The translations under genes were made by a program, and so were the position numbers. This document shows, piece after piece, positions 5,378 to 49,789 of a stretch of 64,000 bases of DNA. Origin of the DNA: an uncultured virus (IMG/VR IMGVR_UViG_3300014059_000009) (taxonomy: Duplodnaviria > Heunggongvirae > Uroviricota > Caudoviricetes); the IMG/VR virus record IMGVR_UViG_3300014059_000009; one strand, given 5' to 3'. How positions within the stretch are numbered: the stretch's first letter is position 1; the number at the start of each line of letters is the position of its first letter. A model generated the notes under the pieces. It was given only the letters and a program-made list of their open reading frames with translations, ran no database searches and was not told the origin of the DNA.

Positions 5378-5663
5378 CCCGGCACATGACAGGCTGATCA
5401 TCGACTGGATGGATGCGTTGCAGGACTACCCGCTGGACGAAATTCGCGCCGCCTGCCGCGAGGCGGTCATGGCCCGGCCCAACGCCATGCCAAACGAGGG
5501 CCACATCGTATCGAAGATCATGGAGGCGCGGGCCGCCTTCGTTCGCCTGAACCCACCGACCACTGCGCCAGAGCCGCGCCAAGAGCGCATGTCAGCCGAG
5601 CGGGCGGCGGAAATCATGGCTGAGGCTGGCTTTCGGCCCAAGGCGTTCGGGGGCACGGAATGA
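5199..5663 (+). CDS. Helicase loader-like protein (lambda P position)
   Basis: Follows initiator; WMDALQDY...EIRAAC...MPNEGHI pattern; SD-like AAGGA before ATG 5199 (alternative start 5307). Confidence 0.55.
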   Translation: MATEVAAQTEYPKAANGLTLPLSRSLASPDLAKHRAMVAVELEVLAKKLDRFGWERDRNSPAHDRLIIDWMDALQDYPLDEIRAACREAVMARPNAMPNEGHIVSKIMEARAAFVRLNPPTTAPEPRQERMSAERAAEIMAEAGFRPKAFGGTE

Positions 5664-6532
5664 CCGAGGCCCAATACCGCATCAACCTCATGGCCCGCTT
5701 CCCCCACCTCACCAGCATGGAAGCCATGGCCCGCCACGAAAGCGCCGTCGCCAAGCGCAGCTGGGAGCGCTGCACCGCCAGCGTCACTCACCACACCGGG
5801 CAGATCGCCACTCGCCACCGCAGGCAGGCATGGGCCGCCGTCATCGTCAGCCTCTCGCCCATAACCAGGGAGGGCGCCCGCGAGGCATGGGGCGTCACCA
5901 ACAGCGCGGCGGACTCCAGGCTCGATAGCCTCGAACTCGGCGGGTTTGCGCAGCGCATATCCGCCCGCCCCATCCGCTGGGCCATCAACACCGAGGGGAG
6001 GCAGGGATTGACGCTCATGATCAGGCACTTCGACTGGCGCAGGGCACTCCTGCACGGCGTCACCCTCGCCGCCGAAAACCACCGCGACCACGACACCCCA
6101 GAGGCGTGGACCGCCATGTGGGAATTGCTCCGTGAGGCAGCCGCCGTCTCCCGGTCGTGGGACGCCCCGCCGCGATCAGGTTTCCCGGATCGTGGGTCAT
6201 GGCCGGAGACGCCCGACGAGATCACTACGTGGCAGCGGCAGATGGCATATCTGCAGGGCACCCTCGATGAGGCCCCCCAGGAAGAGCCCGAGCCTCCCGT
6301 GCCGTCCGCCGCCGAGGTGACGCGCGCCGAGGCTGTCCTGAGCCTCTGGCATGACAGCGCGCTGATCGTCGGCGGACAACCCCACCGGCACAAGCGCGCC
6401 GTATGGCGCCTGGCCGAAGGCGCGTTTCTCGGCTCCGTCACCCGCATGACCGGTCTGCACCGATCCGAAGTGCTGGCCCTGCGGAAAAGAGCCGCAACCG
6501 ACATGCTGCGCGCCGCTGGGGTCGAAAAATAA
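5660..6532 (+). CDS. Putative late-gene regulator (wHTH + DUF6362-like)
   Basis: Last early-right gene (Q position); WELLREAA...SWPE...PSAAEVTRAEAVL resembles DUF6362 proteins. Confidence 0.5.
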   Translation: MTEAQYRINLMARFPHLTSMEAMARHESAVAKRSWERCTASVTHHTGQIATRHRRQAWAAVIVSLSPITREGAREAWGVTNSAADSRLDSLELGGFAQRISARPIRWAINTEGRQGLTLMIRHFDWRRALLHGVTLAAENHRDHDTPEAWTAMWELLREAAAVSRSWDAPPRSGFPDRGSWPETPDEITTWQRQMAYLQGTLDEAPQEEPEPPVPSAAEVTRAEAVLSLWHDSALIVGGQPHRHKRAVWRLAEGAFLGSVTRMTGLHRSEVLALRKRAATDMLRAAGVEK

Positions 6533-6556: not shown

Positions 6557-6585
6557 TTGCAATAGTCCGACTGTCGGACTACATT
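6557..6585 (+). promoter_or_regulatory. Sigma70 promoter with perfect palindromic operator
   Basis: TTGCAA-17 nt-TACATT; TAGTCCGAC-T-GTCGGACTA (6563-6581) fills the spacer. Confidence 0.8.
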
Positions 6586-6628
6586 GAGTGTATCGAAGCT
6601 ACCACCGCACACGCGAGAGGAACCTGAA

Positions 6629-6946
6629 ATGACCAACGAGCAGATGAAAATGATCGTCCGCAAAGCAATCGAGCTTGCGTCGGCACGGGAGGTTTCGGGC
6701 AACAAAACCGATCGTTTCGCGCGCACGCTTGATTTCTGGCCGACCGCCACTTTCGCGGAGCGCGCCTCGACGATGGCGAACCTGCTGGCCCTCGATGCGG
6801 GGGCTGACGTGTCCGACAGGGCGACCTGCGCCGTCAACGCCGAGCGCGCTGCGCTGCGGGAGCGTCAGGTCTGGGGTGTCGACAACGAGTTCTACGACGG
6901 GTCCGCATTCGCTGCCCGTCTCGCCGCGGCACTTGGCGATCACTGA
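6629..6946 (+). CDS. Hypothetical protein (candidate anti-defence)
   Basis: SD GAGG; first gene of autonomous cassette. Confidence 0.7.
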   Translation: MTNEQMKMIVRKAIELASAREVSGNKTDRFARTLDFWPTATFAERASTMANLLALDAGADVSDRATCAVNAERAALRERQVWGVDNEFYDGSAFAARLAAALGDH

Positions 6947-6964
6947 CACCGAGAGGGCCGGGCC

Positions 6965-7417
6965 ATGACCATTCACGAGTTTGCGAACGAGGCAGAGGCG
7001 GCAGAGGCGGGGTATCTGGTCCGCCTCCCCCGCCCCGAGGAATACCGGGGCTGGCTGATCCTGACCGATTGCAAGGGCGGCACGATCCGGGTTTTCGGGC
7101 GGGAACGCGCGGGGACATGGGCCGTGCCCGAGACCCCGCAGCCGCTGATCCGCGTCGGCTTGGCGGGCACGATCCGCATGGCCAGGACGATGCCCAGTGG
7201 TCGCTACATGAAATTTCGTTGGGTTTGGCTGCCGCACGGCGGACAGCCGCGAGAGGACCTGATCAGCATTGCGAACCGGACCAGCCGGGTCGGGCATCCG
7301 ATGCCGCTCGGCAGATATGCTCACCGTTCCGAATGGGAACGCGCACGGGCAGAACTGTGCAGGCTGATCGACGTGCGGGTTGACGGACGCGCCAACCTCG
7401 ACCTGATCGAGGACTGA
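6965..7417 (+). CDS. Hypothetical protein (candidate anti-defence)
   Basis: SD-like GAGAGGG; 150 aa; no recognised family. Confidence 0.7.
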   Translation: MTIHEFANEAEAAEAGYLVRLPRPEEYRGWLILTDCKGGTIRVFGRERAGTWAVPETPQPLIRVGLAGTIRMARTMPSGRYMKFRWVWLPHGGQPREDLISIANRTSRVGHPMPLGRYAHRSEWERARAELCRLIDVRVDGRANLDLIED

Positions 7418-7493
7418 TGGATGCCCCGCAACGGCGAGGAACAGATTTGAACCTTCCTGGACTACGGTTCATCCCCGCCCCAGCGAGGAACGG
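7416..7493 (-). CRISPR. Type I-E-like mini-array: repeat, 20-nt spacer, 3'-degenerate repeat
   Basis: Minus strand CCGTTCCTCGCTGGGGCGGGGATGAACCG (21/29 to the E. coli I-E repeat, 4 differences in the loop) + TAGTCCAGGAAGGTTCAAAT + CTGTTCCTCGCCGTTGCGGGG. Confidence 0.75.
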
Positions 7494-7497
7494 GCCG

Positions 7498-7526
7498 ACA
7501 GAACGCCAGAATCCAATCGGAGTCAA
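7498..7526 (-). promoter_or_regulatory. Putative antisense promoter for the mini-array
   Basis: Minus strand TTGACT-17 nt-TTCTGT; predicted start near 7491, at the 5' end of the repeat; the -10 is weak. Confidence 0.4.
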
Positions 7527-7527
7527 C

Positions 7528-7782
7528 ATGGACGAGAGCCGGAACCCCTACAACCGCTGGTATCGCCGGATCAGGACCAGCCACGCCATGAGCCAGGCCG
7601 AGGTCGTGGAATGCTGCCGCATCGGGGGGCTGGCGGTCAGCCGGTCCATGGTTGATGCATGGGGACGGCGCGCCGGGACCGAAAGCCGCCGAGCGGCGGC
7701 GATGACCGAGGAACAGTTCGAATCTTTCACCGCCGGGCTGGTCGACTGGATCAGGGAGGCCCGCGATGACCCCGCTGGATGA
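7528..7782 (+). CDS. DUF1456/YehS-like small HTH-type protein
   Basis: SD GGAG; YRRIR...MSQAEVV...GLAVSRSMVDAW...MTEEQFESFTAGL resembles the DUF1456 pattern. Confidence 0.55.
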   Translation: MDESRNPYNRWYRRIRTSHAMSQAEVVECCRIGGLAVSRSMVDAWGRRAGTESRRAAAMTEEQFESFTAGLVDWIREARDDPAG

Positions 7783-7972
7783 TACCCGCCCATTTGCCGA
7801 TGTGCTGCGCGATTTCCTCGGGCGGCACCATCTGCGCCAGACACCCGAGACTGCGGCGCTGTTCGGGGCAGGCCGGTCCACGCTGACCGACTGGCTGGCT
7901 GGCCGCGAGGTGCCGCGCGGCGAGCGGTCCCACCGGGCGCTGATGCTGCTGATCGACGAGGGGCGCGCCTGA
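7766..7972 (+). CDS. XRE-type HTH regulator (Aca-like position)
   Basis: ETAALFGAGRSTLTDWLAG HTH; last gene of cassette. Confidence 0.75.
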   Translation: MTPLDDTRPFADVLRDFLGRHHLRQTPETAALFGAGRSTLTDWLAGREVPRGERSHRALMLLIDEGRA

Positions 7973-7983
7973 CTGATAGGCCG

Positions 7984-8012
7984 TTGACACCGGCTCGCAA
8001 ACCTGCCATTTT
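7984..8012 (+). promoter_or_regulatory. Putative late promoter (pR'-like)
   Basis: TTGACA-17 nt-CATTTT upstream of the late operon; analogous TTGACA at 49652. Confidence 0.6.
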
Positions 8013-8028
8013 CACGCTCGGATAAGTA

Positions 8029-8065
8029 CGCCCGCCAGGATCACCCTGCGCGGGCGTTTCGCATT
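8029..8065 (+). terminator. Leader hairpin (tR'-like) downstream of late promoter
   Basis: CGCCCGC-CAGG-ATCAC-CCTG-C-GCGGGCG then TTTCGCATT; 28 nt identical at 49701-49728. Confidence 0.65.
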
Positions 8066-8090
8066 CCCCCACCATCACAGGCGGCGCACC

Positions 8091-8402
8091 ATGGGCACAT
8101 GTTCCTTCTCAGTGGGCAGGTATGGCCGCATTCGCGGCGCAGGCGCTTCAACCGTCATCTCGTCCAGCGTCCGCACATCGGGAAGCCACGCCACCACCAC
8201 CAGCGCGTCCACCCTCTCTGACGGCAGCAACGTCACGCTCGCATCGGGTGAGGTGCTGCAAGTCCACGCCGACGAGGCCATGCGTATCCGCTTCGGGGGC
8301 GTCGCGGCCACAACCAACACCGGCCACTACATCCCGGCAGGCGGACAGGTGGAGTTCGAGTGCAACGATCCGGGGACAATCTCAATCATCGACGTGGCGT
8401 GA
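8091..8402 (+). CDS. Hypothetical protein, first late gene
   Basis: 103 aa ORF after leader hairpin; beta-rich composition. Confidence 0.65.
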   Translation: MGTCSFSVGRYGRIRGAGASTVISSSVRTSGSHATTTSASTLSDGSNVTLASGEVLQVHADEAMRIRFGGVAATTNTGHYIPAGGQVEFECNDPGTISIIDVA

Positions 8403-49262: not shown

Positions 49263-49291
49263 TTGACTGTGACATGTCACAATGGCATATT
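49263..49291 (+). promoter_or_regulatory. Sigma70 promoter with palindromic operator
   Basis: TTGACT-17 nt-CATATT; TGTGACATGTCACA (49268-49281). Confidence 0.8.
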
Positions 49292-49332
49292 GAGGACATG
49301 GAAACGGGGAAACCCAGACAGGAGATACCGAG

Positions 49333-49485
49333 ATGACCACCCGCATCTACAAAGGCCACGAAATCACCCGCAACCACGACGGCAAATGGATTGTTCGCCG
49401 CGCCAACGGCTCGCTGAGCCAGCATGCAACCTTGGCTGACGCGAAAGAAGCCATCACGATCATGGTTGATGTGGCGGAGGCGTGA
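49333..49485 (+). CDS. 50-aa hypothetical protein (candidate anti-defence)
   Basis: SD AGGAG; MTTRIYKGHEITRNHDGKW...TLADAKEAI. Confidence 0.7.
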   Translation: MTTRIYKGHEITRNHDGKWIVRRANGSLSQHATLADAKEAITIMVDVAEA

Positions 49486-49493
49486 TCGGACTG

Positions 49494-49655
49494 ATGACCC
49501 CCGCAAACGAACGCAAAGCCAAGGAGCGCGAAGCCAAGCGCGCAGCCGGGTTGATAAAGGTGGAAGTTTGGGTGCCGGTTTGTGAGGCAGACAAGATCAA
49601 GGCGCTCGCCGCCAAGATGAAGCCGAAGGCACCGAAGGCAACCACAACCGCTTGA
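49494..49655 (+). CDS. Small RHH-like DNA-binding protein
   Basis: [23 protein letters not shown]...DKIKALA. Confidence 0.6.
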
Positions 49656-49737
49656 CATTTCGTCCGTTCGTGTGTCCACTCCCATCATCGAGACGAACCG
49701 CGCCCGCCAGGATCACCCTGCGCGGGCGCTTCGCATT
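49652..49737 (+). promoter_or_regulatory. Late promoter plus conserved leader hairpin
   Basis: TTGACA 49652; hairpin 49701-49728 identical to 8029-8056. Confidence 0.65.
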
Positions 49738-49789
49738 TCACCCCACCCACAACAGGAGCACCACCGCGACGGCGGGCGGTGACGAACGC

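Follow-up and report, generated by a model that had tools for sequence, protein, structure and literature searches.

Does the block at positions 6,557 to 7,972 of the 64,000-nt stretch analysed here (the window) form an autoregulated counter-defence operon of the acr-aca kind, and can the short CRISPR-like unit inside it act as a mimic of a host guide RNA? The window contains two related prophage-like units, detected by self-BLAST, and the block belongs to unit A. Upstream of it lie replication genes and a 290-aa gene (5660-6532), which the earlier note called a late regulator and which gives a sub-threshold match to DUF6362 (E 0.015); methylase and terminase genes follow downstream. A virus record (L001) is near-identical to the window phage, and the window stretch was also found in wastewater and sludge runs. 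Because relatives of the block's terminal HTH gene sit in Rhodobacteraceae genomes, Paracoccus plasmids and Rhodobacter phage RcapMu, we infer a Rhodobacteraceae-type host. For the block as a whole, we lean slightly towards an autorepressed, swappable accessory operon of a Rhodobacteraceae-type prophage, acr-aca-like in layout, that would carry a captured, Cracr-like copy of a host CreR element. The features of the protein-coding cassette are as follows.

6557..6585, plus strand: promoter-like site, -35 TTGCAA, 17 nt, -10 TACATT, 8/12, read from the sequence with a relaxed scan; same frame in relatives.
6563..6581, no strand: palindromic candidate operator filling the promoter spacer, with a conserved core of 8-bp arms and a 3-bp centre; same arms in L005, L006 and L007.
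6629..6946, plus strand: orphan cargo ORF1, 105 aa, pI 5.3, predicted all-helical; four homologs at 78-99%, no family, model pLDDT 63.
6965..7417, plus strand: orphan cargo ORF2, 150 aa, pI 9.5; two homologs at 67-89%, no family, model unusable (pLDDT 34).
7528..7782, plus strand: DUF1456-like ORF, 84 aa from an ATG with a ribosome-binding site, overlapping the HTH start; PF07308 E 4.5e-4, sub-cut-off.
7766..7972, plus strand: terminal 68-aa XRE-like HTH, candidate autorepressor and candidate Aca; weak HTH_31 match (E 0.026) and weak XRE/Cro-like PDB matches.

The promoter proposed in the earlier note, with a perfect 19-bp palindrome in its spacer, is indeed present in the sequence; scoring 8/12, it is not picked up by a 9/12 scan. 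Among the 12 promoter-like sites in the window that score at least 8/12, it has the longest palindrome (arm 9), the second-longest being that of its unit B equivalent (arm 7). The 19-bp sequence has no other match in the window at up to three mismatches (chance mean 0.03). Perfect palindromes with arms of at least 9 occur at four distinct places in the window, so the weight of this one comes from its position and its conservation. Additionally, the operator pattern was found at 14 loci in viral contigs with the HTH present only in the copy of the window phage, and the palindrome by itself is thus no marker.

The HTH family comprises 11 close homologs and 56 representative matches. Full-length relatives occupy 14 distinct loci (L028-L031 counted once; the short partial HTH matches in L012, L013, L039 and L040 dropped), of which 11 were counted, since L008, L010 and L011 come without enough upstream DNA. 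A palindrome lies in the promoter spacer at the same place in nine of these 11 (two imperfect, one with a decayed -35), and is missing in the L028 type and a Paracoccus relic. L005, L006 and L007 share both the operator arms and the recognition helix of the window, L007 despite wholly different cargo and a different context. Other palindromes stand at the same position in L009 (imperfect), L032, L043, L037 (imperfect), L038 (decayed -35) and RcapMu, and the recognition helices differ wherever the protein was compared among these loci (L009, L032, L043, L037, RcapMu). Two traits of Aca operons are therefore found here: a promoter-spanning inverted repeat that varies with the regulator, the operator changing as the helix changes, in 9/11 relatives, and a small HTH/RHH gene that ends an operon of small genes, in the same position in relatives.

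Modelled as a homodimer, the HTH scored 0.86 against 0.00 for the best of three controls, with runs agreeing 100% and pLDDT of at least 95, although the pass may reflect likeness to solved XRE dimers; the score mark is reached by 20/30 solved dimers and 1/23 monomers. The modelled interface is the invariant C-terminal helix. Given the co-variation of operator and recognition helix across relatives, together with the dimer model, the promoter palindrome is very probably the binding site of the terminal HTH. In all likelihood the cassette is an accessory operon that this HTH would bind and repress; the same two lines of evidence support the acr-aca-like layout with autoregulation that had been proposed, with binding predicted.

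The same design occurs in a cultured Rhodobacter phage, RcapMu (L123, JN190960.1, genes 5-2, locus 850-2686), whose cassette has a palindrome in the promoter spacer, three unknown genes and a terminal HTH relative (hhalign prob. 97.8).

Turning to the second prophage-like unit, two further features bear on the slot that the cassette occupies.

49263..49655, plus strand: unit B counterpart cassette, with a distinct 14-bp palindrome in its promoter, then a 50-aa ORF and a 53-aa MazE-like regulator (PF11455 E 0.0023, sub-cut-off).
7984..8091, plus strand: downstream promoter-like site and 63-bp element common to unit B (49701-49763).

The block had been described as absent from unit B. This holds for its genes, which give no self-BLAST match there, and fails for its design, which is present at 49263-49655 in the same slot with a different palindrome. 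The 50-aa ORF weakly matches DUF2188, and the 53-aa MazE-like protein is a candidate RHH-type autorepressor. A related prophage, L043 (G071:C101), has two cassettes in tandem at this slot, both inverted and both with a promoter of their own, and in L005 an A-type and a B-type cassette are stacked (L005:1940-2350). From these arrangements, the slot is, as far as sequence comparison tells, a hot spot for swappable operons. Recombinants of A-type and B-type modules were seen in L005, which has both cassettes, and in protein P0002, an HTH joined to the final residues of the unit-B-type upstream gene. Downstream of the slot, a 63-bp hairpin-like element (8029-8091; 49701-49763), 85% identical between the units and without an Rfam match, follows the downstream promoter in both.

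ORF1 and ORF2 gave no match in Pfam, PHROGs, NCBIfam or PDB and no usable match in Atlas; membership of known non-defence families, which the earlier note had named as evidence against a defence role, was accordingly not found in the first four. The ORF1 fold had no Foldseek match at E 0.001 (best Z 6.0, unspecific). The 84-aa ORF falls short of PF07308 (DUF1456) membership, with 20.8 bits against a Pfam cut-off of 27; it is 53% identical to the L006 allele, has weak tblastn matches to DUF1456-annotated plasmid genes, and a DUF1456-like gene also adjoins the HTH in Paracoccus plasmid relics. By sequence likeness it is a distant DUF1456 relative; a literature search found no paper on DUF1456 function. 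An alternative 121-aa ORF from 7417, reading through the CRISPR unit, was rejected, as homologs align only from 7528.

In relatives, the cargo is small, variable and mostly orphan, and several proteins are acidic (pI 4.1-4.6 in L007, L009 and L032); small, variable and often acidic cargo is among the listed traits of Acr operons (PMC7391736). Two cassettes carry MucR/Ros-family zinc-finger genes above the Pfam cut-off (L009:743-958, L010:145-636), which fit a role in host regulation equally well. No known Acr was matched by the window cargo or by up to nine relatives' cargo proteins in Pfam, NCBIfam and PHROGs (six cargo queries in PDB), a search of general family libraries that left out the RcapMu and L043 cargo. 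The claim that ORF1 and ORF2 are anti-CRISPRs is thus not supported yet, and they remain candidates. That the cargo serves counter-defence or host take-over has, from the layout only, about an even chance; the sole pointers to an anti-defence function of the cassette are that layout and the CRISPR mimic.

Comparison with acr-aca operons, for which Aca1-Aca14 are known (PMC13551039), shows a shared plan: small cargo, a terminal small DNA-binding gene and an inverted repeat over the promoter. The regulator is an HTH in unit A and MazE-like/RHH-type in unit B, and Aca14 is likewise RHH (PMC13551039); neighbouring operons are stacked in acr-aca loci (PMC13551039), as here in L005 and L043. Unlike acr-aca operons, no cassette of this HTH family has a known acr gene among the cargo tested, which is also the outcome of the suggested search for HTH homologs beside known acr genes. 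Also unlike them, the HTH matched no Aca-named entry (none among 43 PDB matches to E 1), and the cassette has no clear 5' UTR hairpin (z -0.09). A new Aca in the strict sense, as the HTH had been called, is therefore not yet supported, no known Aca being matched, and the HTH stays a candidate. The AcrIC9 operon of Rhodobacter phage RcapNL (PMC7391736) is similarly a small operon with an HTH gene in a Rhodobacter phage, its HTH being described as a distant Aca3 homolog (PMC7391736); a phage collection search with the window HTH matched RcapMu only and not RcapNL.

The second part of the question concerns the CRISPR-like unit between ORF2 and the DUF1456-like ORF.

7465..7493, minus strand: pseudo-repeat 1, type I-E, with an intact 8-nt 5'-handle end; up to 26/29 identical to Rhodobacteraceae I-E array repeats.
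7445..7464, minus strand: 20-nt pseudo-spacer, candidate guide; host CreR spacers are 20-21 nt in 5/18 units.
7416..7444, minus strand: pseudo-repeat 2, with an intact stem and a decayed tail like host CreR second repeats; 18/21 identity to L125, L095 and L112.
7498..7526, minus strand: weak candidate promoter for a minus-strand RNA, 7/12, without the -11 A, the only candidate near the unit on that strand; stretch faintly cas3-3'-end-like.

The best repeat identity of 26/29 compares with 20-22 in 30 shuffled windows. On the minus strand the order is repeat 1 (7493-7465), 20-nt spacer, repeat 2 (7444-7416). Host repeats of this type lie on the cas strand in host loci, and both stems are more stable on the minus than on the plus strand (-9.6 versus -5.7 kcal/mol for repeat 1, -8.4 versus -4.6 kcal/mol for repeat 2), one change in each stem reading as U-G on the minus strand, where it pairs, and as a C-A mismatch on the plus. 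The unit is therefore a minus-strand element, antisense to the operon, and the notion that the operon promoter drives a crRNA mimic is wrong in the functional sense. The handle end and both stems are intact, and the loops and second tail have drifted. Taken over its full 116 nt, the unit has a fold no more stable than those of shuffled sequences (z 0.03 and -0.51), and Rfam gave no match in the window. Two depth-2 contigs of RNA run X16 cover the unit; they are strandless and allow no reading of strand or expression.

Upstream of cas8e in Rhodobacterales, 39 regions (38 distinct) were compared, drawn from both genomes and plasmids; 18 of the 39 contain a two-repeat unit on the cas strand, and in 14 of these 18 a seed-matched site lies just downstream of the spacer, with PAM AAG (12), ATG (1) or AAA (1). 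Spacer-target mismatches typically fall at positions 6 and 12, the second match block is at least 4 in all 14 pairs, and spacer lengths cluster at 20-21, 26 and 32-33 nt. Such CreR mini-arrays with PAM-flanked seed targets are common, occurring in 13 distinct of 38 Rhodobacterales I-E cas3-cas8e gaps (L088, L092, L094, L095, L098, L101, L110, L114, L115, L118, L125, L126 and L131). By analogy, these two-repeat units are CreR elements as described for Salmonella. In type I-E CreR the first repeat keeps the handle and the second keeps the stem (bioRxiv 10.1101/2023.03.10.532045), and the host Rhodobacteraceae units follow this plan, with an AAG PAM.

The phage unit has the same division (bioRxiv 10.1101/2023.03.10.532045), with the handle in the first repeat and the stem in the second; unlike I-E CreR, its setting is a prophage that lacks cas genes, and no target adjoins it. 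Its repeat (26/29), its 20-nt spacer and its second repeat (18/21 to three host CreRs) make it very likely, by sequence, that the unit was copied from a type I-E CreR of a host. For likeness to a cas3 end, the 27 bases preceding repeat 1 rank in the top 30 of 127,942 peptide sites and the top 177 of 127,946 DNA sites; this likeness, noticed after the fact and scoring -0.7 against 10.7-35 for 28 host cas3 ends, is a weak hint of direct capture from the host. On the other side of the unit, at window positions 7404-7415 on the minus strand, five of the first six spacer bases recur at the end of ORF2 with no PAM, seven bases past the second stem, where host CreRs hold their target; this is possibly a capture junction.

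Two kinds of phage-borne repeat RNA offer themselves for comparison. CracrIE1/2 of a Salmonella prophage (bioRxiv 10.1101/2024.10.29.618823) are, like the present unit, prophage-borne I-E pseudo-repeat/short spacer/pseudo-repeat elements that copy host CreR, and I-E Cracr spacers of 21 and 24 nt have been described (bioRxiv 10.1101/2024.10.29.618823). The unit likewise has type-matching pseudo-repeats around a short spacer, outside a cas locus and in a mobile element. It differs in that a cognate CreR and target promoter were not found, in its single spacer and in its antisense position inside a protein operon. Racrs are solitary repeat units (PMC10651486); like them, the unit mimics a CRISPR repeat and occupies an intergenic gap of a prophage, with small unknown genes as neighbours. 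Unlike a Racr, which has a single repeat with no second copy within 100 bp, it has two pseudo-repeats, 49 bp apart, and lacks a convincing promoter on the strand it lies on. Overall, it resembles a CreR copy (Cracr, Cascade-redirecting RNA) more than a solitary-repeat Racr. Self-repressing phage cassettes and CreR-type mini-CRISPRs are both already known; the repressor family and cargo genes are candidates for new members. Rhodobacteraceae are not named in the main text of bioRxiv 10.1101/2024.10.29.618823, the candidates of Table S2 lying outside that text. In a literature search, no publication treated this HTH family as Aca, described RcapMu as carrying anti-CRISPRs or dealt with Cracrs of Rhodobacteraceae, the bioRxiv supplements with candidate lists, which may contain the element, being outside the search.

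A working scheme would run as follows. The cassette promoter would fire when phage DNA enters the cell, yielding the small cargo proteins, until the terminal-HTH dimer on the palindrome between -35 and -10 shuts it. One allele would have acquired a host I-E CreR copy between ORF2 and the DUF1456-like gene in the opposite orientation. Host Cas6e would cleave the minus-strand RNA behind pseudo-repeat 1; the product, made up of 8-nt handle, 20-nt guide and 3' hairpin, would load into Cascade in competition with real crRNAs. Cascade so loaded would park on a PAM-flanked site at the host cas8e promoter and thereby lower immunity. That this Cracr mechanism works for the phage unit, with transcription, processing, target and anti-defence effect all as predicted, has slightly less than an even chance.

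The 39 cas8e-upstream regions, a small sample of possible hosts, yielded no target for the guide, and none of them gave at least nine PAM-proximal matches to a host CreR/CreA spacer and promoter target. A pattern search of 36 genomes (35+1) found no guide target, the viral collection contained no second phage copy with this seed, and none of 582 host spacers truly matched the window, the best being partial matches of 16-20 nt. Window site 39302 was rejected as a guide target: its match blocks are 5,5,0, but its PAM is ACA and the match is at about chance level.

The CRISPR unit is also optional. L006 has no such unit and a different DUF1456-like allele, and joints that skip the unit are present in runs X10 and X15, so the unit is dispensable; it is unchanged in L005 and covered by contigs in X5 and X10, which come from other studies and represent close relatives. 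A true array is present in run X15 as well, with a repeat that fits 7465-7492.

These observations bear on the strongest alternative, an autoregulated moron-type operon with no anti-CRISPR role, in which the CRISPR unit is a silent relic of a host cas3-cas8e gap carried along with the DUF1456-like allele. The lack of an Acr match and the MucR/Ros cargo in L009 and L010 agree with it, as do a unit that is antisense, optional and short of both a good promoter and a found target, and a faint cas3-end likeness that suggests raw capture. A silent relic, however, does not readily keep its handle end and both stems intact while loops and second tail drift, and persistence of the unit in L005, X5 and X10 also argues against decay, although these are close relatives. 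We regard this reading as unlikely, though worth serious attention.

Alternatively, the unit could be a target-less decoy of the Racr type that soaks up Cas6e/Cas7, transcribed from the minus strand or, as the earlier note implies, as part of the operon mRNA. The failure to find a guide target suits such a decoy, and Racrs cluster with acr genes, two I-E Racrs being functional (PMC10651486). Two repeats around a spacer of CreR length, however, are not a solitary repeat, and the mRNA version of the unit has no handle and less stable stems, each with a C-A mismatch and a loss of about 4 kcal/mol; a decoy is improbable.

A broader scheme would give one HTH switch two opposite RNA weapons and a new Aca family: at infection the strong plus-strand mRNA, antisense to I-E repeats, would block crRNA maturation while ORF1/ORF2 inhibitors are made, the minus-strand CreR mimic would restrain Cascade in the lysogen after HTH shut-off, and the HTH would mark unknown anti-defence genes across Rhodobacteraceae phages. 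We consider this combination distinctly improbable. Its plus-strand component taken as an explanation in itself, in which the operon mRNA is an antisense RNA that pairs with host pre-crRNA repeats or CreR and blocks processing under HTH control, is very improbable. The transcript that is strongly predicted contains an I-E repeat in reverse complement, and its weakened stems would leave it open for pairing; yet the stem variant already exists in host CreR second repeats, so inheritance explains it, pairing with CreR would raise cas expression, and a literature search found no paper on antisense repeat RNA. Finally, it is extremely improbable that the guide sends host Cascade to the cassette's own operator so that the phage senses Cascade: the guide shares its first six bases with the operator arm, beside which the minus strand has an ATG PAM, a triplet that also serves as the PAM of one host CreR (L101), but the match blocks there are 5,1,0, whereas the second block reaches at least 4 in all 14 host pairs, and three host spacers also begin TAG, so the operator was rejected as a guide target.

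Returning to the autorepressed operon with a captured CreR copy, confirmation of the HTH as an autorepressor of counter-defence operons would provide a new marker for anti-defence genes in Rhodobacteraceae phages, with RcapMu genes 5-2 as a cultured example. The mini-CRISPR would extend Cracr RNAs to Rhodobacteraceae, and the alleles with and without the unit form a natural pair, perhaps a snapshot of a phage capturing a host CreR.

Among viral contigs, the exact variant of pseudo-repeat 1 was found at four loci, the other three being unrelated I-E mini-arrays. Short type I-E mini-arrays with no cas genes nearby were seen in other phage contigs (L033:1850-2150, L034 and L035). On the host side, the cas3-cas8e gaps of L074 and L079 are long, with a terminator-like hairpin after the CreR target and a stretch common to the two gaps, having a very short ORF-like start, which might be a CreT-like element.
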